A stretch of 64,000 bases of DNA from Eledone cirrhosa. Lineage: Eukaryota. Under the pieces are notes generated by a model. The model was given only the letters and a program-made list of their open reading frames with translations. It made no database searches and was not told where the DNA came from. Positions 18,341-42,612 of this stretch are shown piece by piece (position 1 is the first letter of the stretch; the number at the start of each line of letters is the position of its first letter). The stretch lies in NCBI GenBank assembly GCA_964016885.1, contig OZ024745.1, forward strand, positions 86,490,001 through 86,554,000. The letters are read 5' to 3'. A program made the position numbers and the translations under genes.

Positions 18341-18341
18341 A

Positions 18342-18424
<83 letters not shown>

Positions 18425-18837
18425 GCATACTACTGTACGTCTGTACACATATATGTATGTACGTATACATATTATATTTAAATAACAGCCGTACTGAGAG
18501 TGAGAAATCAAATTTCGTTTCATTTTTTCCGTTTATCGTTTTCGGTACCCCGGCCGATTAACTCATTCGATATGCAAATTAGGCTGCTCAGCCGTTAATA
18601 TGCACAAGGAAAGTATATACTTTCAGACGTTCAACCATCTGGCAGGAAGGTATACGTTGCTGACGATAGCTAATTAGTTTGAAACTAGTACAGCGTTCCT
18701 TTGTCAGTGTTGAACAAATAAGCAACGATGGTTGCTAGACACTGTACGGCTTAAATCGGGATGTTTGTTTACAAACACACCGAGTATTATAATAAATGTT
18801 CGGTGAATCCATACGTACATATATATATGTGTGCATG

Positions 18838-18907
<70 letters not shown>

Positions 18908-18930
18908 GTATAAAAATCAATACAATATAA

Positions 18931-19006
18931 TTACCTCATTACCAGAGGTTTCCCGAATGAGGCGAATACGAAAGAAGCGTCTTCATTCGTTCGTCAGACG
19001 AGGCAA
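18931..19006 (-). ncRNA. Type I hammerhead ribozyme (PLE pLTR)
   Basis: Reverse complement reads ttgcctcgt CTGACGA acgaatga...tcattcgg GAAA cctctgg TA atgaggtaa. Confidence 0.8.
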
Positions 19007-20015
19007 TATAAAACATGGGTAAATACTTGGAAAGTCTCGTCAAGAAAATAAAAAAAAAGATATAGACAAATGAATTAGAATATGAAATATATAATAATCT
19101 TTCAAGAAATATAGTTAGGTGTGTGTATATGTATGTATATACGCTCACAGATGTGCATATATGTGTATGCACATATGTATCCATATTGATACAGGGTGTA
19201 AAAAACTTGTGGATAAGTAAGTACAAATATAAAGTTGTAAGATTGGCTGCGCAAAAATAAAAAACAAAAATAAAAATGAAAAATATATCTGGATTGGAAA
19301 TCACAAATGACAAGTGTAATCAGTTAGTGAAGGAAAAAGGGAAGTAAAAAAAGGGGAAGTAAAAAATGGAAAGTGAATCGGAGAATAAAGGGGGGGGGGG
19401 GTTATTGGTGGATGTGAAGTAAAAAAAAAAAAAAAAAAATAATAATAAAAATAAAAATAAATGAAATTAATGACAAGGGTAAAAATGAAAGTAAGTCAGA
19501 AAGGGTAATTAAAAAGAGAATAATAAGAGTTTATGGAGGATAAGTATCTGAAAGTGTGTTAAATTTATATGAGCTGGAAAGCAGGTGTGATTTCATGTGT
19601 GGGCAACTGGTGAAAATTTCCGTCTTTGTGTTCAGGCAGGTCTTTGGTGATTTTAGATTTTGCAATATCCAATATTTTTCATTTATGCAGAGCGTGCATT
19701 TTCTTGTTCCTCTAGCATATTCTTTAGATTGGTTCAAAATTGACCAATCTAATTTATATTGGATGCCTTGGTCTTTCAAATCCCATCACTAACTGATTAT
19801 ACTTGTCATTTGTGTTTTCCAATTCAGATATATTTTTCATTTTTATTTTTATTTTTTTATTTTTTTATTTTTGCGCAGCCAATCTTACAATTTTATATTT
19901 GTACTTACTTATCCACAATTTTTTACACCCTGTATCAATATGGCTGAACGCCTTAATGTGTGTATACTTTCTATATATGTACATGAACGACTACGTATGT
20001 GCGCGCGCGTGCGTG

Positions 20016-20048
<33 letters not shown>

Positions 20049-20805
20049 GTATATATATATATGTGTGTGTATGTATATGTGTATGCGTACGTGTATGTGT
20101 CTTTATATCCGTGTTTTGACATCTAGGTTTTATGTTTTGTTCCTTTTTTCTTCTCCTCCCCTTTTTTTACTTACTCATTTTTATGCGTGTGCATGCAAAC
20201 AGGTCAATATGCGTGAGTGTAAGTATGTGTGTGTGTGTGTGTGTGTGTGTGTACGTATCGAACGTATGGATGTGTAAGTGTGCGTGTGTATATAAGCATG
20301 TATATTTTTGCGTTTCTTTTGTGAGATATGCGTGTCTGTGTATGTATGTACCCTTTTTTGTCTTCTTTTCTTTAATTTTTTCTTTCTAAATTTTTTCTTT
20401 CTAAATTATTGTTCCATTTTTATAAATATATCGAGATTGATACTTTCCTTTAAATATTACACTCCCTTACCTCTTTTACTTCCGCATCTAAGTGTACGTG
20501 TGTGTAGGTGTGTTTATGCACGCGCCTTCATATTCATATTCTTATGATGTATCTATTCTGTCTGTAGATTACAGACATACAGATACATTTGCCCTAAATT
20601 TTATATTTACGCACACTTTTTCACTATACGTATACATATGTGCATACACATATATGCACATCTGTGAGCGTATATACATACATATACACACACCTAACTA
20701 TATTTCTTGAAAGATAATTATATATTTCATATTCTATTTCATTTGTCTATATCTTTTTTTTGATTTTCTTGACGAGACTTTCCAAGTATTTATCCATGTT
20801 TTATA

Positions 20806-20881
20806 TTGCCTCGTCTGACGAACGAATGAAGACGCTTCTTTCGTATTCGCCTCATTCGGGAAACCTCTGGTAATGAGGTAA
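20806..20881 (+). ncRNA. Type I hammerhead ribozyme (PLE pLTR)
   Basis: Stem I ttgcctcgt/atgaggtaa, CTGACGA at 20815, stem II cgaatga/tcattcg, GAAA at 20860, stem III ACC-TCT-GGT, GUA cleavage triplet. Confidence 0.82.
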
Positions 20882-20982
20882 TTATATTGTATTGATTTTT
20901 ATACATTAAATTTTGCTCTGATACTTACATAGAGCACTCTTCACTTCTATGACCTTTTCTGTTTTCAACGGAAATTTCAATA

Positions 20983-21036
<54 letters not shown>

Positions 21037-21913
21037 TTCTACTGTCCGTCTGTATACATATATGTATGTACGTATACATACTTATATTGAAGTAACAGCC
21101 GTACTAAGAGTGAAAAAATAAAATTTCGTTTCATTTTTTCCGTTTATTGTTTTCGGTACCCCGGCCGATTAACTCACTCGATATGCAAATTAGGCTGCTC
21201 AGCCGTTAATATGCATAAGGAAAGTATATACTTTCAGCCGTTCAACCATCTGGCAGGAAGGTATACGTTGCTGACGATAGCTAATAAGCTTGAAACTAAT
21301 ACAGCGTTCCTTTGTCAGTGTTGAACAAATAAGCAGCGATGGTTGCTAGACACTATACGGCTTAATTCGGGTTGTTTGTTTACAAACACACCGAGCATTA
21401 TAATAAATATTCGGTGAATCCATACGTACATATATATATGTGTGTGCATGTATGTATATGTATATATATATATATATATATATGCATACTACAGTACGTC
21501 TGTATACATATATGTATGTATGTATACATACTTATATTTAAGTAACAGCCGTACTAAGAGCGAGAAATGAAATTTCATTTCATTTTTCCTTTTATCGATT
21601 TCGGTACCCCGGCCGATTAACTCACTCGATATACCCAATAAGGCTGCTCAGCCCTTAATATGCATAAAGAAAGTACATACATTCAGACGTTCAACCATCT
21701 GGCATAAAGGTATACGTTGCTGACGATAGCTAACAAGCTTGAAACTAGTACAGCGTTCCTTTGTCAGTGTTGAACAAATGAGCAACGATGGTTGCTAGAC
21801 ACTGTACGGCTTAATTTGGCATGTTTGTTTACAAACACACCGAGCATTATAATAAATGTTCAGTGAATCCATACGTACATATATATATATATATATATGT
21901 GTGCATTTATGTA

Positions 21914-22020
<107 letters not shown>

Positions 22021-22021
22021 G

Positions 22022-22081
<60 letters not shown>

Positions 22082-22507
22082 TATGCATACTACTGTACGT
22101 CTGTATACATATAAGTATGTACGTGTACATACTTATATTTAAGTAACAGCCGTACTAAGAGTGAGAAATGAAATTTCGTTTCATTTATTCCGTTTATCGC
22201 TTTCCATACACCGGGAGATTAACTCACTCGATATGCAAATTAGTTTGCTCAACCGTTAATATGCATAAGGAAAGTATATACTTTCAGACGTTCAACTATC
22301 TGGCAGGAAAGTATACGTTGCTGACGATAGTTAACTAGCTTGAAACAAGTACAGCGTTCCTTTGTCAAGTGTTGAACAAATGAGTAACGATGGTTGCTAG
22401 ACACTGGACGGCTTAATTCGGGATGTTTGTTTACAAACACACCGACTATTATAATAAATGTTCGGTGAATCCAGACGTACATAAATATATACGTGTGCAT
22501 GTATGTA

Positions 22508-22559
<52 letters not shown>

Positions 22560-22687
22560 TGCATACTACTGTACGTCTGTATACATACATGTATGTTCGT
22601 ATACATACTGATATTTAAGTAACAGCCGCACTAAATGTGAGAAATGAAATTTCGTTTCATTTTCTTCTTTTATCGTTTATGTAGATT

Positions 22688-22780
<93 letters not shown>

Positions 22781-23193
22781 GCATACTACTGTACGTCTGT
22801 ATACATATAAGTATGTATGTGTACATACTTCTATTTAAGTAACAGCCGTACTAAGAGTGAGAAATCAAATTTCGTTTCATTTTTCTGACTATCGTTTTCG
22901 GTACCCCGGCTGATTAACTCACTCGATATGCAAATTAGGGTGCTCAGCCGTTAACATGAATAAGGAAAGTATATACTTTCAGACGTTCAACCATCTGGCA
23001 GGAAGGTATACGTTGCTGACGATAGCTAATTAGTTTGAAACTAGTACAGCGTTCCTTTGTCAGTGTTGAACAAATAAGCAACGATGGTTGCTAGACACTG
23101 TACGGCTTAAATCGGGATGTTTGTTTACAAACACACCGAGTATTATAATAAATGTTCGGTGAATCCATACGTACATATATATATGTGTGCATG

Positions 23194-23244
<51 letters not shown>

Positions 23245-23247
<3 letters not shown>

Positions 23248-24362
23248 GTATAAAAATCAATACAATATAATTACCTCATTACCAGAGGTTTCCCGAATGA
23301 GGCGAATACGAAAGAAGCGTCTTCATTCGTTCGTCAGACGAGGCAATATAAAACATGGGTAAATACTTGGAAAGTCTCGTCAAGAAAATAAAAAAAAAGA
23401 TATAGACAAATGAATTAGAATATGAAATATATAATAATCTTTCAAGAAATATAGTTAGGTGTGTGTATATGTATGTATATACGCTCACAGATGTGCATAT
23501 ATGTGTATGCACATATGTATCCATATTGATACAGGGTGTAAAAAACTTGTGGATAAGTAAGTACAAATATAAAGTTGTAAGATTGGCTGCGCAAAAATAA
23601 AAAACAAAAATAAAAATGAAAAATATATCTGGATTGGAAATCACAAATGACAAGTATAATCAGTTAGTGAAGGAAAAAGGGAAGTAAAAAAAGGGGAAGT
23701 AAAAAATGGAAAGTGAATCGGAGAATAAAGGGGGGGGGGGGGGGTTATTGGTGGATGTGAAGTAAAAAAAAAAAAAAAAAAAAAATAATAATAAAAATAA
23801 AAATAAATGAAATTAATGACAAGGGTAAAAATGAAAGTAAGTCAGAAAGGGTAATTAAAAAGAGAATAATAAGAGTTTATGGAGGATAAGTATCTGAAAG
23901 TGTGTTAAATTTATATGAGCTGGAAAGCAGGTGTGATTTCATGTGTGGGCAACTGGTGAAAATTTCCGTCTTTGTGTTCAGGCAGGTCTTTGGTGATTTT
24001 AGATTTTGCAATATCCAATATTTTTCATTTATGCAGAGCGTGCATTTTCTTGTTCCTCTAGCATATTCTTTAGATTGGTTCAAAATTGACCAATCTAATT
24101 TATATTGGATGCCTTGGTCTTTCAAATCCCATCACTAACTGATTATACTTGTCATTTGTGTTTTCCAATTCAGATATATTTTTCATTTTTATTTTTATTT
24201 TTTTATTTTTTTATTTTTGCGCAGCCAATCTTACAATTTTATATTTGTACTTACTTATCCACAATTTTTTTACACCCTGTATCAATATGGCTGAACGCCT
24301 TAATGTGTGTATACTTTCTATATATGTACATGAACGACTACGTATGTGCGCGCGCGTGCGTG

Positions 24363-24395
<33 letters not shown>

Positions 24396-25329
24396 GTATA
24401 TATATATATGTGTGTGTATGTATATGTGTATGCGTACGTGTATGTGTCTTTATATCCGTGTTTTGACATCTAGGTTTTATGTTTTGTTCCTTTTTTCTTC
24501 TCCTCCCCTTTTTTTACTTACTCATTTTTATGCGTGTGCATGCAAACAGGTCAATATGCGTGAGTGTAAGTATGTGTGTGTGTGTGTGTGTGTGTGTGTA
24601 CGTATCGAACGTATGGATGTGTAAGTGTGCGTGTGTATATAAGCATGTATATTTTTGCGTTTCTTTTGTGAGATATGCGTGTCTGTGTATGTATGTACCC
24701 TTTTTTGTCTTCTTTTCTTTAATTTTTTCTTTCTAAATTTTTTCTTTCTAAATTATTGTTCCATTTTTATAAATATATCGAGATTGATACTTTCCTTTAA
24801 ATATTACACTCCCTTACCTCTTTTACTTCCGCATCTAAGTGTACGTGTGTGTAGGTGTGTTTATGCACGCGCCTTCATATTCATATTCTTATGATGTATC
24901 TATTCTGTCTGTAGATTACAGACATACAGATACATTTGCCCTAAATTTTATATTTACGCACACTTTTTCACTATACGTATACATATGTGCATACACATAT
25001 ATGCACATCTGTGAGCGTATATACATACATATACACACACCTAACTATATTTCTTGAAAGATAATTATATATTTCATATTCTATTTCATTTGTCTATATC
25101 TTTTTTTTGATTTTCTTGACGAGACTTTCCAAGTATTTATCGATGTTTTATATTGCCTCGTCTGACGAACGAATGAAGACGCTTCTTTCGTATTCGCCTC
25201 ATTCGGGAAAACTCTGGTAATGAGGTAATTATATTGTATTGATTTTTATACATTAAATTTTGCTCTGATGCTTACATAGAGCACTCTTCACTTCTATGAC
25301 CTTTTCTGTTTTCAACGGAAATTTCAATA

Positions 25330-25332
<3 letters not shown>
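23245..25332 (-). mobile_element. Duplicate of the 18905-20985 Penelope-like element, with hammerheads at 23271-23346 (-) and 25153-25228 (+)
   Basis: Near-identical sequence at an offset of ~4.34 kb. Identical 82-aa GIY-YIG fragment at 23877-24125. Confidence 0.88.
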
Positions 25333-25389
<57 letters not shown>

Positions 25390-26234
25390 TTCTACTGTCC
25401 GTCTGTATACATATTGAAGTAACAGCCGTACTAAGAGTGAAAAAATAAAATTTCGTTTCATTTTTTCCGTTTATTGTTTTCGGTACCCCGGCCGATTAAC
25501 TCACTCGATATGCAAATTAGGCTGCTCAGCCGTTAATATGCATAAGGAAAGTATATACTTTCAGCCGTTCAACCATCTGGCAGGAAGGTATACGTTGCTG
25601 ACGATAGCTAATAAGCTTGAAACTAATACAGCGTTCCTTTGTCAGTGTTGAACAAATAAGCAGCGATGGTTGCTAGACACTATACGGCTTAATTCGGGTT
25701 GTTTGTTTACAAACACACCGAGCATTATAATAAATATTCGGTGAATCCATACGTACATATATATATGTGTGTGCATGTATGTATATGTATATATATATAT
25801 ATATATATATGCATACTACAGTACGTCTGTATACATATATGTATGTATGTATACATACTTATATTTAAGTAACAGCCGTACTAAGAGCGAGAAATGAAAT
25901 TTCATTTCATTTTTCCTTTTATCGATTTCGGTACCCCGGCCGATTAACTCACTCGATATACCCAATAAGGCTGCTCAGCCCTTAATATGCATAAAGAAAG
26001 TACATACATTCAGACGTTCAACCATCTGGCATAAAGGTATACGTTGCTGACGATAGCTAACAAGCTTGAAACTAGTACAGCGTTCCTTTGTCAGTGTTGA
26101 ACAAATGAGCAACGATGGTTGCTAGACACTGTACGGCTTAATTTGGCATGTTTGTTTACAAACACACCGAGCATTATAATAAATGTTCAGTGAATCCATA
26201 CGTACATATATATATATATGTGTGCATTTATGTA

Positions 26235-26325
<91 letters not shown>

Positions 26326-26326
26326 G

Positions 26327-26382
<56 letters not shown>

Positions 26383-26808
26383 TATGCATACTACTGTACG
26401 TCTGTATACATATAAGTATGTACGTGTACATACTTATATTTAAGTAACAGCCGTACTAAGAGTGAGAAATGAAATTTCGTTTCATTTATTCCGTTTATCG
26501 CTTTCCATACACCGGGAGATTAACTCACTCGATATGCAAATTAGTTTGCTCAACCGTTAATATGCATAAGGAAATTATATACTTTCAGACGTTCAACTAT
26601 CTGGCAGGAAAGTATACGTTGCTGACGATAGTTAACTAGCTTGAAACAAGTACAGCGTTCCTTTGTCAAGTGTTGAACAAATGAGTAACGATGGTTGCTA
26701 GACACTGGACGGCTTAATTCGGGATGTTTGTTTACAAACACACCGACTATTATAATAAATGTTCGGTGAATCCAGACGTACATAAATATATACGTGTGCA
26801 TGTATGTA

Positions 26809-26876
<68 letters not shown>

Positions 26877-27004
26877 TGCATACTACTGTACGTCTGTATA
26901 CATACATGTATGTTCGTATACATACTGATATTTAAGTAACAGCCGCACTAAATGTGAGAAATGAAATTTCGTTTCATTTTCTTCTTTTATCGTTTATGTA
27001 GATT

Positions 27005-27089
<85 letters not shown>

Positions 27090-27303
27090 GCATACTACTG
27101 TACGTCTGTATACATATAAGTATGTATGTGTACATACTTCTATTTAAGTAACAGCCGTACTAAGAGTGAGAAATCAAATTTCGTTTCATTTTTCTGACTA
27201 TCGTTTTCGGTACCCCGGCTGATTAACTCACTCGATATGCAAATTAGGGTGCTCAGCCGTTAACATGAATAAGGAAAGTATATACTTTCAGACGTTCAAC
27301 CAT

Positions 27304-27372
27304 CTGGCAGGAAGGTATACGTTGCTGACGATAGCTAATAAGCTTGAAACTAGTACAGCGTTCCTTTGTCAG
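27304..27372 (+). ncRNA. Representative intact satellite hammerhead; intact cores also start at 5113, 7198, 8180, 15337, 18660, 21720, 23016, 26047, 27818 and 28315
   Basis: ctggca-gg-aagg-tat-acgttg CTGACGA t-agct-aata-agct-t GAAA CTAG TA cagcgt-t-cctt-tgtcag. All core nucleotides are present, with an extended stem I and a palindromic loop III. Confidence 0.85.
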
Positions 27373-27514
27373 TTTTGAACAAATGAGCAACGATGGTTGC
27401 TAGACACTGTACGGCTTAATTCGTGATGTTTGTTTACAAACACACCGAGCATTATAATAAATGTTCGGTGAATCCATACGTACATATATATATATATATG
27501 TGTGCATGTATGTA

Positions 27515-27578
<64 letters not shown>

Positions 27579-31860: not shown

Positions 31861-32048
31861 ATACTTAACTACCAAGGATCTCACATATATATATATGATG
31901 AAATGTGATAAATAATTAAGTGTTGCATATGATTGAACAATATATATTGTAGACGATTATAATAGACAAGGAAACATATGTTAAAGCAAATACATTCCTA
32001 ATCTCCTTTTTCACGCCAATGTTTATATTTTTCTTTGTATAATACTTG

Positions 32049-32093
<45 letters not shown>

Positions 32094-32094
<1 letters not shown>

Positions 32095-34901
32095 TTGAAA
32101 CAAAATGAAAACGAAATTTCATTTCTCACTCTTAGTATGGCACTTACTTAAATGTAAGTATGCATGTATACGTACATACATATATGTATACAGACGTACA
32201 GTAGCATGCACATATATATATATATATATACATATATACATACATATGCATACAGGTACACATACATATATGCACGTATCAGTTTAGCGGCGCTAACGTC
32301 GCTTTGTTCGTTTGTAAACAAACTGAACAGCCTGAATTTATGCCATACGGTGTTAAGGCAACCACGTCACCTTTTTGTTCAACACTGACACAGGAACGAT
32401 GTACTAGTTTCAAGCTTGTTAGCTATCATCAGCACCGTTTACCCATCTGCCAGATAGTTGAACGTTCGAAAGTATATACTTTCCTTATGAAAATTAACGG
32501 CTGAGCAGCCTAATTTGCATATTGAGTGAGTTAAATCGGTCAGGCATACCGAAAACGATAAATTGAAACAAAATGAAAACGAAATTTCATTTCTCACTCT
32601 TAGTATGGCACTTACTTAAATGTAAGTATGCATGTATACGTACATACATATATGTATACAGACGTACAGTAGCATGCACATATATATATATATATATATA
32701 CATATATACATACATATGCATACAGGTACACATACATATATGCACGTATCAGTTTAGCGGCGCTAACGTCGCTTTGTTCGTTTGTAAACAAACTGAACAG
32801 CCTGAATTTATGCCATACGGTGTTAAGGCAACCACGTCACCTTTTTGTTCAACACTGACACAGGAACGATGTACTAGTTTCAAGCTTGTTAGCTATCATC
32901 AGCACCGTTTACCCATCTGCCAGATAGTTGAACGTTCGAAAGTATATACTTTCCTTATGAAAATTAACGGCTGAGCAGCCTAATTTGCATATTGAGTGAG
33001 TTAAATCGGTCAGGCATACCGAAAACGATAAATTGAAACAAAATGAAAACGAAATTTCATTTCTCACTCTTAGTATGGCACTTACTTAAATGTAAGTATG
33101 CATGTATACGTACATACATATATGTATACAGACGTACAGTAGCATGCACATATATATATATATATATACATATATACATACATATGCATACAGGTACACA
33201 TACATATATGCACGTATCAGTTTAGCGGCGCTAACGTCGCTTTGTTCGTTTGTAAACAAACTGAACAGCCTGAATTTATGCCATACGGTGTTAAGGCAAC
33301 CACGTCACCTTTTTGTTCAACACTGACACAGGAACGATGTACTAGTTTCAAGCTTGTTAGCTATCATCAGCACCGTTTACCCATCTGCCAGATAGTTGAA
33401 CGTTCGAAAGTATATACTTTCCTTATGAAAATTAACGGCTGAGCAGCCTAATTTGCATATTGAGTGAGTTAAATCGGTCAGGCATACCGAAAACGATAAA
33501 TTGAAACAAAATGAAAACGAAATTTCATTTCTCACTCTTAGTATGGCACTTACTTAAATGTAAGTATGCATGTATACGTACATACATATATGTATACAGA
33601 CGTACAGTAGCATGCACATATATATATATATATATACATATATACATACATATGCATACAGGTACACATACATATATGCACGTATCAGTTTAGCGGCGCT
33701 AACGTCGCTTTGTTCGTTTGTAAACAAACTGAACAGCCTGAATTTATGCCATACGGTGTTAAGGCAACCACGTCACCTTTTTGTTCAACACTGACACAGG
33801 AACGATGTACTAGTTTCAAGCTTGTTAGCTATCATCAGCACCGTTTACCCATCTGCCAGATAGTTGAACGTTCGAAAGTATATACTTTCCTTATGAAAAT
33901 TAACGGCTGAGCAGCCTAATTTGCATATTGAGTGAGTTAAATCGGTCAGGCATACCGAAAACGATAAATTGAAACAAAATGAAAACGAAATTTCATTTCT
34001 CACTCTTAGTATGGCACTTACTTAAATGTAAGTATGCATGTATACGTACATACATATATGTATACAGACGTACAGTAGCATGCACATATATATATATATA
34101 TATACATATATACATACATATGCATACAGGTACACATACATATATGCACGTATCAGTTTAGCGGCGCTAACGTCGCTTTGTTCGTTTGTAAACAAACTGA
34201 ACAGCCTGAATTTATGCCATACGGTGTTAAGGCAACCACGTCACCTTTTTGTTCAACACTGACACAGGAACGATGTACTAGTTTCAAGCTTGTTAGCTAT
34301 CATCAGCACCGTTTACCCATCTGCCAGATAGTTGAACGTTCGAAAGTATATACTTTCCTTATGAAAATTAACGGCTGAGCAGCCTAATTTGCATATTGAG
34401 TGAGTTAAATCGGTCAGGCATACCGAAAACGATAAATTGAAACAAAATGAAAACGAAATTTCATTTCTCACTCTTAGTATGGCACTTACTTAAATGTAAG
34501 TATGCATGTATACGTACATACATATATGTATACAGACGTACAGTAGCATGCACATATATATATATATATATACATATATACATACATATGCATACAGGTA
34601 CACATACATATATGCACGTATCAGTTTAGCGGCGCTAACGTCGCTTTGTTCGTTTGTAAACAAACTGAACAGCCTGAATTCATGCCATACGGTGTTAAGG
34701 CAACCACGTCACCTTTTTGTTCAACACTGACACAGGAACGATGTACTAGTTTCAAGCTTGTTAGCTATCATCAGCACCGTTTACCCATCTGCCAGATAGT
34801 TGAACGTTCGAAAGTATATACTTTCCTTATGAAAATTAACGGCTGAGCAGCCTAATTTGCATATTGAGTGAGTTAAATCGGTCAGGCATACCGAAAACGA
34901 T

Positions 34902-34902
<1 letters not shown>
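32094..34902 (-). repeat. Array 2: six near-identical 468-bp hammerhead monomers (diverged subfamily of array 1), flanked by (TA)n
   Basis: Periods of 468/470/468/468/468 in the ORF track. Reverse complement is colinear with the array 1 monomer. Confidence 0.95.
32385..32453 (-). ncRNA. Type I hammerhead ribozyme of array 2; stem I starts at 32395, 32865, 33333, 33801, 34269 and 34737
   Basis: Reverse complement reads ctggcagatgggta-aacggtg CTGATGA t-agct-aaca-agct-t GAAA CTAG TA catcgtt-cctg-tgtcag. Confidence 0.87.
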
Positions 34903-34972
<70 letters not shown>

Positions 34973-35121
34973 CAAATGAATGAAGGAGTTACAGGCCGTT
35001 AAAATAAGTCCTTTATATAGATTGAGCGCATCACGCTTCGGCTATTGGTATTTAGTATTCTGTATCGCACCTCTTTGCACCTTTCTGCTTCATCCTTCTT
35101 ACGATACTTAAACCCTATTAT

Positions 35122-38287: not shown

Positions 38288-41200
38288 TGGTATCGATTAA
38301 TTTTCTCCCTCTCTTTCTCTTGCACTCTCGTGTCGAATGGGCAGGCCACATCCACAATCAGGCATGATCTTTTTTCTTTGTCCACAACCACCAGGTCAGG
38401 TCTATTGTGTTCCAGTTTCTTGTCCGTCTGTATCCTAAAATCCCACAGCACCTTCACCTGATCGTTTTCTATCACCGACTCTGGCTTATGCTCATACCAC
38501 TTCTCAGAATGTGGTAAATTGTTTACTTTGCATAGGTGCCAGTGGATCACCCTGCCCATCACATCATGTCTCCAGCCCTTATAGTGAGTCTGGGCTAGGT
38601 GTTTACGCTCAGATACAATGTGAGCCACAGTCTCCTCTCTCTCTCCACAGTCACCTCTCTCTCTCCACAGATCCTGCACAGTGGGCTAGCCTCCTCCTTG
38701 TAAATATGGTATTTCAACCACTTCGTTTTGAGGGCCTGCTCTTGCGCAGCCATTAACATTCCTTCTGTAGCCTTGTTAAGGTCTCCTCATATTCAAGCAG
38801 TTCCATGTCTGTGGATCTCTGAATTCAGTTTTCTCAAAGAAGGTACTATGAAGGGATTTTTCCTGAAGGCTGCTCTTTCTCCTTGTTGTTATTTCCTCCT
38901 TGGACATCCCCTGGTCTATTGTCCTCTCCTTCAGTACAGTTCTGAGCATTGGCTCCTTACTATCAGCCACGTATTTGTGTAGGTTGTTTTTCTCCATCTG
39001 AACACAGTCCTCTATGCTGATAAGACCTCTTCCACCTTCAGATCTCCTTAAGTAGAGTCTATCGACATCACTCCTCTTGTGGAACATGTTGTAGATAGTC
39101 AATAGCTTTCTAGTCTTCCTATCCATTTCTTTTTGTTCAGCAACATTCCATCTCAGAATTCCCGCACTGTACCTAATAATAGACACAGCTCGGGAATTTA
39201 CTGCACTTATGGCATTCCTACTATTCAGATGTGACTTTCATACGCTCCTTACTCTCCGAATGTATTCAGTTCTTTTCAATTCCTTCATTTTTTTGTTCTT
39301 GATGTCATCAGCTTCCAGAACACCCAAATACTTGTATCCTTCTTCAGTGTCAATTTCCTTTATCAACTCACCTGTTGGTACCTGGATTCCGTTGCTTCTG
39401 CTCAATTTACCCCTCTTCCTCACAAGGACTCCACACTTACTAATACCAAATTGCATACATATATCATTGCTGAAAATACGGACAGTGTCAACAAGCACAT
39501 CCAACTCATTCTCACTCTTCCCGAAGAGCTTAAGATCGTCCATGAAGTGGAGGTGATTGATGGTAATTTTCCCTTTCCCAACTTGTATCCTGCTCTCACT
39601 TTTCGCAGTATAATGGTCAGGGGCATCAGGGCAAGGACAAACAACAGAGGGGACAGACTATCTCCCTGGAAGATACCTCTCTTGATTTTCACGCCTCCCA
39701 AGGATTCTCCAGCTGATGTTAACTCTGTTTCCCAGGACTTCATACTTTTGCCCAACAACTGTCTGATGTTATCTGCCACCTTGAAGATCTCTAGGCTTTT
39801 GGTGATCCAAGAATGAGGCACCATGTCGAATGCCTTTTGTAGTCTATCCATCCCATGGCAAGACCAGTGTGTCTCCTCTTGCAATTCCTCATTACCATCT
39901 TATCAATAAGTAACTGGTCCTTTGTACCACGGGACTTCTTTCGGCATCCTTTCTGTTCGTCCGGTAACAAGTTGTTTGTGTGGCGGTGATGGTAGATTTC
40001 CTCAGACATAATGCTTGTCAACAGTTTCCACATTACGGACAGACATGTGATTGGTCTATAGTTGGTAACATCATTACCCTTGATTCGGTCCTTCATTACC
40101 AGAACTGTGGTACCTTTTGTCAACCACTCTGGTACCTCACCTGACATCAAGCAGTCATTGAACATGGTTGTCAGTTTCGGGTGGAGGGATGTTATATTTT
40201 TAATCCAATACCCCTGCACACCATCTGGGCCTGGTGATTTCCATTTGGTTAGTTTTTTGGCCTGCCCCTTAAGAGTTTCAACTGTGATACTCAAGTCAGT
40301 TTGTTGGTGTGCCTGTTCACTAATCTTCTGTACTGTCTCAATCCACACTGCCTGGTCATTATGTTTAACATCCTGCTCCCATATTCCTCTCCAGAATGTT
40401 TTAGTTTGTTCCGCCTCAGGGATCAAGTCGTTGCCTCTTTCTTTCCCCTCAAGCTGTCCAAACAGCATCTTCTGGTTGTTGTCAAACATGCGGTTCTGTC
40501 TATACTGACTGACTCTGCTCTCGTATCGCCTAATTTTTGCACTCTTTGCTACAATGCGTTGCTTCAGTTCCTCTATGATAATATTTAGCTTTTTCCTCCT
40601 AGTTTTGTACTTTATTTCCAGTCTATTTTTAGTGTCTATGTTTTTTAGTGTCCCATTCAGTAGGGACTCAAGCTTTCCAATGTCATTTCTCATTTCCCTG
40701 ATTTGACGACTCAGTCGTTTCTTCCACCAAGGCTCTGATCTTTCTTGTTTGTTGTTTACTCTCGCTTTTATACCAAGTAATTTCCTCACCGCATTTGCTG
40801 TTGCTTTGAGGATATTGTTGCACTGGTGAAGGCTCCTCGCCTCAAGGTATGGGATGACTTTGTTTACCTTAGCTGTTGTTTCTTTTAACTTTTTTCTGTC
40901 TACAAATCTTAGGTTCGTAGGTTTCCCACTATCATTGTTCATTTCATCTACCACTAAGTTTAGGATATCAACCAAATCTTGTCCTAGCCCGTCAGCATTC
41001 ATCTCCTCAATGGCCGTATCTTTGTTCCAGGTATTATTTATTTCAGCATTCAGATCATTGTTTGCTTCGGGTGGTTCCTCCGTTCTCTCAACCTCTTCAC
41101 CTTCATTTCCCACTGGCTCGTTTGCCTGGCATACTCCACTCTCCATTTCCAACCTAATCTCTCTGCTCAGTTCCTCCAGTTCCAGCTCGCTTAGCCACCC

Positions 41201-42612
41201 ATTAGTTCTTATTACCCGAGCCTGTCCGGCCAATTTTTGTTCATCTAATTTAAATAGACCAATCTCGTTCCAGATGTTATGCATCCGTTTCCTATAGCCT
41301 TTCTCCTTGGGGTTACTCTTCAGGTAACATTGCATAACAGTTCTATTCAATTCTTTCGTCCAGTTGGTTCTGGTCCCTTTCCTTCTTCTTCCTCCGACAC
41401 CAGCAGTATTTGGTTGACAGCCAGGTCCCTGCTGCTGAGCCAGGGAGTACCTGCTGGGTGAGAGTTTGTCACATGACATTCTAGTCTCCACTTCACCGTT
41501 ATTCGAACTGTTTAGGTTCGACATTTAAACACTCTTATCGAGGATTGGTGAATGTATGGTTACATAACCACCGGTGATTTCATAACCTCCGGTGATTTCA
41601 TCACTCCCGGTGATTTTTGTGTGGCACTATCACGCTGTAGACGAACATAAATAAACAAACAAACAAACAGGCAAAAAACCCCCCAAAAAGAATAAGCATA
41701 AGTTTCATTGTAATGTAATGTTTGACTGTCTGACTTGGTTTTTCCCTTCCCTTCTCTGTCCGTCTGTTTGTTTTTCTCTTCATTTTTCTTTTCTTTACGT
41801 TTTTCGTTGTTGCTGTGCTGCTTTGATTTTGATTTTTGGTTTTTGATTTTTTGACCGGGTCATCAATTCAGTCTATTTATATATTTTGATGCCTTCCTCT
41901 TTTAGTGGGGACACTACGATGCATGTGTTAACAGGAGGTAGTGAGAGAGAATAGCGGCGGTAGTGATAATGAGGCAGTGGTGGTGGTGGTGTGGTGGTGC
42001 TGTGCTAGTAGTACTTAGCATGAGGTAGTGGGAGAGAATAGCGGCGGTAGCGATAATGAGGCAGTGGTGGTGGTGATGTGATCGTAGTACTGTAGTGATG
42101 GTGTTGCAGTTGAAGTAGAAACAGAAGTTGAGGCAACTTGACCAGTTTTTAGCGTGGTAGTGGTGTTGGTGTTGGTGGTGAAATTATCTCTTCTCTGTCC
42201 ACTTAGCCATTTAGCTATCTATGTAGCTATTTAGTCATTTTGCCATTTTCCTCCTATTCGACTCTAACATTCCTGATCCAAAATTAAATATTAATATTGT
42301 TTATTAATATTGTCTAGTGATACCGCCACCTTCCCCTTTCGTAAGTTAACAGAAAGTAATGGGGGAATAGCGGTGGTAGCAATGAAGGGGTGGTGGCGGC
42401 GGTGGTGGGATAGTGGTAGCAATGATGGATGGGGTGGTGGCGGCGGTGACTATAGTGATGGCGTTGTCGTTACTGAGTTTTGTTGAATAGACTGTAGTTT
42501 GTTTGATCGGTGAATCTATGCGGTTAGTCGCGTATGTTTAATATATGTGTTGACATATCTTAATATTGGAATTAAACATTTTGTGAAAACTTGAGACAAT
42601 AATACTAGTAAT
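38286..42612 (-). mobile_element. R4/Dong-like RLE non-LTR retrotransposon, family B: frameshifted ORF from 41524, extreme 3' end deleted
   Basis: Motifs PWWKKRL, KSPGPDG, NYRPITCL, EQKG, WIDY, GIFQGDSLSPLLF, MDDLKL, GGRGL, ETVAHIVSE, NRPDLVVVD...IVDVACP. Confidence 0.9.

Follow-up and report, generated by a model that had tools for sequence, protein, structure and literature searches.

A young hammerhead retrozyme array in Eledone cirrhosa, probably copied from an RNA circle by Penelope-like reverse transcription at a (TA)n target

Animal non-LTR retrozymes, as described from coral, mussel, and axolotl, are built from non-coding tandem units of 150–450 bp with one type I hammerhead each, are low in GC, have no LTR, PBS, or PPT that was seen, and are predicted to form highly self-paired circles; the circles themselves have been demonstrated, and a rolling circle-copying cycle has been proposed (PMC7229834). 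Neither "inverted" nor "tail" is used as a term in the main text of that article. Hammerheads with a palindromic stem III and a 2-nt loop have been described as active only in dimeric form within tandem repeats (PMC4209133). Vertebrate retrozymes have been described as non-autonomous tandem hammerhead repeats in genomes with Penelope-like elements (PLEs), to which they were tied by co-occurrence and pLTR similarity, and eight of nine Xenopus retrozyme dimers were uncleaved in vitro (Li, Clavereau, Pollet 2026, 10.64898/2026.07.22.740005). In Penelope elements, the "tail" lengthens an inverted insertion at just one of its ends (PMC8557442, PMC3846280); in vitro it corresponds to the interval between two internal start sites of the reverse transcriptase (RT), a protein predicted to dimerize and to cut and extend both strands (PMC11167929). 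Non-autonomous Chlamys elements such as MRC1 (PMC8557442) form a further related system, which is green algal and for the most part without canonical hammerheads. How animal retrozyme arrays arise is debated, as circle copying was proposed without genomic proof (PMC7229834), whereas local DNA amplification is discussed for the vertebrate elements (10.64898/2026.07.22.740005), and the formation of Penelope tails and inverted ends is likewise under debate (PMC8557442, PMC11167929). A young and abundant family, such as the one described here, separates models of array formation from sequence alone, and its significance lies more in this family-level test of mechanism than in the single hexamer from which it is approached.

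The window is a stretch of 64,000 nucleotides of the Eledone cirrhosa genome (GCA_964016885.1, contig OZ024745.1, positions 86,490,001–86,554,000) that contains two arrays of the element, of which array 2 occupies positions 32094–34902 and is present in the assembly. Unit mapping bore out the extent given in the original prediction (2809 bp) and resolved six tandem units starting at 32094, 32562, 33032, 33500, 33968, and 34436 with lengths of 468, 470, 468, 468, 468, and, up to 34902, 467 nt. Relative to unit 3 as the reference, the units differ only by an AT insertion in unit 2 and a T>C change at 34681 in unit 6, again as foreseen, and TRF reports a period of 468 with 6.0 copies, 99 % matches, and a score of 5594. 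It was also correctly noted that the internal junctions lack a TA tract and that (TA)n directly flanks both sides; there is no LTR, and no ORF of at least 150 aa was found in 32094–34902. Phases are hereafter given on the 468-nt sense monomer, in which phase 1 is the base after the predicted hammerhead cut. Read with the junction usual in the family, the insertion extends from 32090 to 34902 on the minus strand, which is the RNA sense, with the RNA-3' end on the left, and comprises 6.01 units of 468 nt in a single arm, with TAT common to insert and (TA)n at each end and no head-to-head second arm. The left (TA)n target (32051–32092) is joined to a fixed start site, termed site A (phase ~312), with a G at 32093 as a one-base departure from the usual junction, and the right target (34900–34970) meets the 5' end, which lies at phase 310, via TAT microhomology. 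Within the 3'-most unit, a "tail" of about 60 nt reaches from site A to a second site, B (phase ~250–253), at 32090–32151 (minus strand), followed by an internal TA/TACA microsatellite (phase 122–250; 32152–32280, minus strand) that is predicted to form a long hairpin and differs in length among units. The bases just beyond the two TA tracts (32046–32052 and 34970–34976) are reverse complements over about 6 nt, which may be chance. A search with the left flank returned the locus itself at 100 % and otherwise only repeat copies at 81–85 %, and a second haplotype was not found. Among the sequencing runs listed, 20 of 24 contain all or part of the stretch, with no RNA run listed among them.

Each unit carries one type I hammerhead on the minus strand, recognized by core motif, stems, and covariation (32395–32439, 32865–32909, 33333–33377, 33801–33845, 34269–34313, and 34737–34781 in units 1 to 6), and all six are intact, as had been stated, and identical. 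The layout comprises a 7-bp stem I, CUGAUGA, a U-U, a 3-bp stem II with a UAACAA loop, and GAAAC-UA-GUA; the cut in unit 1 is predicted between 32402 and 32401. Stem III is palindromic (ACUAGU) with a 2-nt loop, which predicts dimeric activity, and its duplex is predicted at −6.8 kcal/mol; the weak palindromic helix III and the U-U at the base of helix II resemble the axolotl motifs (PMC7229834). In stem I, G-U in array 2 corresponds to U-G in array 1. An Rfam search of the array gave nothing at the gathering score and, below it, a weak match to Hammerhead_HH9 (18.5 bits, E 0.14), so that the hammerhead is called from its core motif, its stems, and the covariation with array 1; microRNA-like Rfam matches were rejected as artefacts of the TA hairpin. 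The circular monomer is predicted to fold at −153 kcal/mol (z −9 against 40 shuffles), a value to which the TA hairpin contributes part. For the E. cirrhosa element, self-cleavage and RNA circles are predictions.

Array 2 represents a single, young insertion of a non-LTR retrozyme that is very abundant in the genome and is filed as such on features that can be read from the assembly, and it appears to work like a Penelope element. The element class is already known, and the family adds a member to it: like the animal non-LTR retrozymes, it has GC-poor, non-coding tandem units that each carry a type I hammerhead, shows no LTR, PBS, or PPT, and has a highly self-paired predicted circle, and it occurs as dispersed, high-copy mono-, di-, and multimers. 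It differs from what is described in PMC7229834 in its 468-nt unit with an internal microsatellite, its strict (TA)n targeting, its ends fixed at two sites, and its head-to-head arms; moreover, circles have been shown for the animal retrozymes of that study, whereas the Eledone element is known here as genomic sequence. With the vertebrate retrozymes (10.64898/2026.07.22.740005) it shares the non-autonomous, PLE-associated tandem hammerhead repeat and a genome with PLEs. Among the papers searched, largely openly accessible main texts, none was found to describe arm asymmetry, concordance between arms, or array-wide A>G changes in retrozymes.

Members of the family were located by exact sequence patterns. 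An exact 37-mer of the hammerhead has 10,223 matches in the 3.0-Gb genome, the colinear unit junction of array 2 has 4,320, its right-hand TA junction 11, and the left-type junction (site A plus a long pure TA tract) 261 exact ones. From among the matches listed, mostly on contigs 1–3, 160 regions around matches were taken, and 170 insertions were mapped on a concatemer. The 3-kb loci L001–L030, mostly of older subfamilies, were left out of end and variant counts; L069 (overlapping L040) was left out as well, L059–L068 (selected by 5' junction) were excluded from end counts, and L112–L114 (selected by a G pattern) from end counts and from variant counts that drop selected loci. Arms were accepted at identities of 88–90 % for end counts and 93 % for variant counts, and the latter omit microsatellite, 3' junction, and indel columns. 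Array size ranges from 0.1 to more than 20 units per arm, with many other arrays of 4–20 units; insertions of at least six units account for 10/74 and 14/77 in two sampled sets. The same loci hold a sister retrozyme family (L055, L078, L099, L157) with 466-nt units, a related hammerhead, and a GUU/GUC cut triplet, which appears to use the identical two start sites, a 310-nt tandem hammerhead family (L010, L011, L131) that is also two-armed and in (TA)n, and at least 15 further hammerhead types.

Nearly all RNA-3' ends lie in (TA)n, with 57/108 at phase ~312, 44/108 at ~250, and 7/108 elsewhere, that is, 101/108 at two sites 60 nt apart. The left end of array 2, originally taken for the mark of a circularly permuted monomer, is thus the fixed start site of the family and not a random phase. 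The 5' ends, on the other hand, are nearly uniform (KS p 0.064; 3/106 at phase 304–314). An almost exact hexamer had been regarded as a rolling-circle signature as well, yet lengths within 0.02 of whole units occur at the chance level (4/74 and 4/77 insertions, together 8/151, with about 3 expected in each set), and the 10 other loci with the right-hand junction of array 2 include insertions of 1.01, 2.0, and 3.01 units but also of 0.88, 2.86, and 2.87. TA-joined 5' ends prefer microhomology, as 8/16 start with TAT or ATA against 12 % expected, and phase 310 offers a TAT.

Most insertions comprise two arms joined head-to-head. Each arm began at its own start site in 33 of 38 such insertions from loci not selected on ends and in 56 of 59 from loci selected on the 312 end (89/97 combined), and no insertion had both arms at the same site; the inner joins overlap by 1–6 nt in 63/98. 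A fixed start site on each arm of head-to-head insertions is the signature of the Penelope tail. The family hence shows what is found in PLE-mobilised copies, namely two fixed start sites bounding a tail on one end, an inverted copy, and random 5' truncation, and it also shares the AT-rich or (TA)n targets and the hammerhead in the repeat (PMC11167929, PMC8557442, PMC3846280); unlike PLEs, it has no ORF, its tail measures about 60 rather than 30–40 nt, and both its arms repeat a single short unit, up to 15–20 times. In L1-type twin priming, the internal priming site lies close to where the forward arm stops. Classical twin priming of this kind on one linear RNA was rejected, given that only 2/35 site-A arms end at phase 230–270, near site B.

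Which molecule served as the template was judged from the agreement of the arms. At a 6-nt indel that marks subfamilies, the arms are concordant in 74/75 insertions, where independent RNAs would give 34.8 discordant ones, and at a second marker in 68/69, with about 30 discordant expected. Furthermore, 186/251 arms continue across the hammerhead cut site, which a cleaved linear monomer, read once, could not have templated. Together with the site-A arms that do not stop near site B, these observations leave a circle, a repeatedly read monomer, or an uncut multimer. Arms from different families or subfamilies occur in two insertions (L078, 2100–4182; L152, 535–1575), and two RNAs can therefore serve one insertion. 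Our preferred reading is that rolling copying of one monomeric RNA circle by a Penelope-like RT at a (TA)n target explains the array, and we give it a probability of roughly 0.68.

It would be an unlikely but not far-fetched alternative that Penelope-type priming took place on an uncleaved linear multimeric transcript of a homogeneous array. In vitro, PAc took uncleaved RNA as its chief substrate (PMC11167929), such a template predicts a perfect junction at the cut site, and L040 has one variant order common to both arms, repeated with period 3, just as 3 partially shared variants occur in both arms of their insertions. On a multimer, however, A>G changes made at the RNA level should scatter among units, and the spectra differ from this expectation. 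Variants present in every unit of an array (strict region, L114 left out) are sense A>G in 13/25 and T>C in 2 cases, whereas single-unit variants in the strict region are A>G in 19/203 and T>C in 28 (Fisher p 1e-6); in a wider region, A>G accounts for 23/44 array-wide and 28/290 single-unit changes. Counted by insertions, array-wide A>G exceeds T>C by 16 to 4 in the wider region (p 0.006) and, weakly, by 7 to 2 in the strict region (p 0.09). In one insertion, L111, 7/7 array-wide changes are A>G, in 11/11 covering units of both arms; its four-site core pattern exists at 4 loci genome-wide, and no further array with the full haplotype was found in the assembly, which again speaks against a homogeneous multimeric source. 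L114, located via this pattern, carries nine array-wide A>G changes; both loci are without the insertion at the indel marker and may share an edited ancestor. An older subfamily (L112, L113) shares several of the G alleles, which makes polarity uncertain at those sites, and the interleaved non-A>G differences of that subfamily are missing from L111 and L114. The changed A's are not enriched at paired positions (16/27 versus 75/127). ADAR has a nearest-neighbour preference, and the changed A's show no enrichment for it either. RNA is the simplest place for a strand-specific change to arise, and we infer ADAR editing as its source from strand and clustering. Since the strand-specific A>G changes are in all units and not scattered among them, one monomer templated every unit, and a linear multimer by itself cannot make a new variant array-wide. 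Array 2 has no private variant common to all its units, so that a circular template is proposed for it on the evidence of the family.

We regard it as improbable that the six units grew out of a short insertion, with a single head-to-tail junction, through later unequal crossing-over or slippage, although some DNA-level duplication does occur in the family. Periodic shared variants in L040, L062, L107, L041, and L136 attest to it, with periods of 4 and 5 in L062 and L107, and since a monomer circle would not give the periodic variants of L040, L062, and L107, DNA duplication or a multimeric template is needed there. In L040 (967–9757), an insertion of 19 units, a unit with a short microsatellite precedes a 448T unit, and this pair occurs in both arms, twice in one of them. 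Single-unit changes are fewest in long arrays (rho −0.37, n = 98), and this homogeneity would fit recent expansion too. Steady duplication, though, predicts 67 segregating variants common to some units where 23/179 were counted (a single early burst is still compatible), and these partially shared variants have a DNA-type spectrum (A>G 2/23) unlike that of the array-wide ones. Both arms exceed one unit in 38/98 insertions, and arrays of 9–13 units have zero single-unit changes. While local amplification is discussed for vertebrate retrozymes (10.64898/2026.07.22.740005), the variant pattern in Eledone favours birth as multimers.

A cleaved linear monomer on which the RT jumps repeatedly from the 5' end to its own 3' end accounts for array-wide variants and shared arms equally well as a circle, and 5' ends are slightly overrepresented at phase 1–30 (12/106, p 0.04), which would agree with it. 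We nevertheless consider such jumping quite improbable: inner ends do not pile up at the cut site (2/76 and 1/112 at phase 1–5), only 11/576 crossing units have a substitution within 4 nt of it, and the 4 indels listed nearby are all deletions, with 0 insertions and hence no added bases. Jumping should also mix markers between monomers, which is seen in 1/123 insertions. The faithful cut-site junction and the lack of a pile-up of 5' ends there thus favour a closed circle. An integrated extrachromosomal DNA circle or its rolling-circle product, offered as eccDNA in the original prediction, or else an assembly artefact would yield colinear junctions and near-identical units but is scarcely credible, because eccDNA leaves unexplained the fixed 3' and random 5' ends, the asymmetry of sites A and B, and the strand-specific sense A>G excess, which point to an RNA intermediate, and because the units differ at two places and many arrays of 4–20 units exist elsewhere, contrary to an artefact. 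A Helitron- or DINE-1-like rolling-circle DNA element was rejected on the RNA-type polarity and the hammerhead. Of the original interpretation, a young retrozyme-type insertion stands, with circular RNA as the most likely template, although not as argued from permutation and hexamer length; the tabulation of start phase, end phase, and unit number that had been suggested as a check, run on the 170 sampled insertions, removes those two clues, and the arm structure, the arm concordance, and the array-wide variants of the family support a circular RNA template.

On the RNA circle reading, an existing array would be transcribed, and neighbouring hammerheads are predicted to pair via the palindromic stem III and to release 468-nt monomers, which would be ligated into circles. 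A Penelope-like RT/GIY-YIG protein borrowed from another element would then nick (TA)n and prime cDNA at site A (phase ~312), where the ends are observed to be fixed, the enzyme being putative. The RT would displace its own cDNA and keep circling, for six rounds in the case of array 2. Usually, site B, which lies 60 nt upstream, would be where the other DNA strand primes on this same RNA and thereby gives the head-to-head second arm, a structure that is seen in the insertions and whose origin from the same molecule is probable. For array 2, in which this arm is absent, the end of the cDNA may have been attached to the TA target through the next TAT microhomology; this would happen to be the start motif and so produce a whole number of units. 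Later slippage and occasional duplication at the DNA level would have changed a minority of arrays, as witnessed by the 23 partially shared variants. In its most far-reaching form, which we hold to be an even call, a Penelope-type RT dimer on one hammerhead-made circle would carry out two rolling-circle, target-primed reactions at once, one from each cut DNA strand and with starts separated by 60 nt, and A-to-I edits of this circle would reach all units in the two arms; thousands of arrays in the genome would then be fossil read-outs of single circles and would explain Penelope tails as well as tandem and inverted ends. For in vitro work, the family supplies a template of 468 nt, (TA)n as the target, and two exactly placed start sites.

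The element lacks the frame of an autonomous PLE (RT and GIY-YIG ORF). PLE ORFs in the window and at many loci do, however, have the motifs RWR/RWK, DKA, and CxCX5C, as in the (TA)n-targeting Hydra clade. In the window, a broken PLE (9887–12378, minus strand, and 12595–13680, plus strand) with RT plus a GIY-YIG-like part at the C-terminus is arranged head-to-head with a truncated second arm, and carries the Hydra-clade motifs RWR, DKA, and CxCX5C. Long PLE-like frames with Hydra-type motifs were further observed at L089 (761–3112; about 760–784 aa) and L168 (3915–5906; 664 aa), and these ORFs are candidates for the mobilising protein. In Pfam, 4/6 proteins had no family, among them the L089 and L168 frames, and 2 gave weak RVT_1 matches; in the Atlas, the L089 ORF lies close to clusters that have HTH_animal and GIY-YIG, a placement that names no partner. 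The monomer showed no similarity to 16 stretches beside PLE-like ORFs or elements, a small sample of the PLE families of the genome. The link to PLEs in Eledone thus lies in the anatomy of the insertions, with no homologous pLTR in these 16 stretches, in contrast to the co-occurrence and pLTR similarity used for vertebrate retrozymes (10.64898/2026.07.22.740005).

Array 1 (3404–29056, plus strand) consists of interrupted clusters in the opposite orientation to array 2, with which they are about 80 % identical. The earlier view of it as the older, decayed state holds as to age, whereas it proved to be a distinct subfamily of the same element and not simply a decayed array 2, as its majority sequence differs from that of array 2 in 51/319 columns (16 %). 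Its 24 units differ by 4.8 % from their own majority, 12 cores fit the intact hammerhead pattern versus 24 long units, and site A also delimits its short fragments, whose alignments stop at 312–317. Inside array 1, a stretch of about 4.3–4.9 kb is tandemly duplicated at 97 % identity (18341–23252 and 22697–27568). Two more hammerhead elements unrelated to the monomer, one of them a fold-back, are found in the window at 5421–5980 and at 18997, 20815, 23337, and 25162. From 36500 to 63100, the window holds many LINE-like RT and endonuclease fragments, several of them duplicated, including one with a weak RVT_1 match at 39794–41524.
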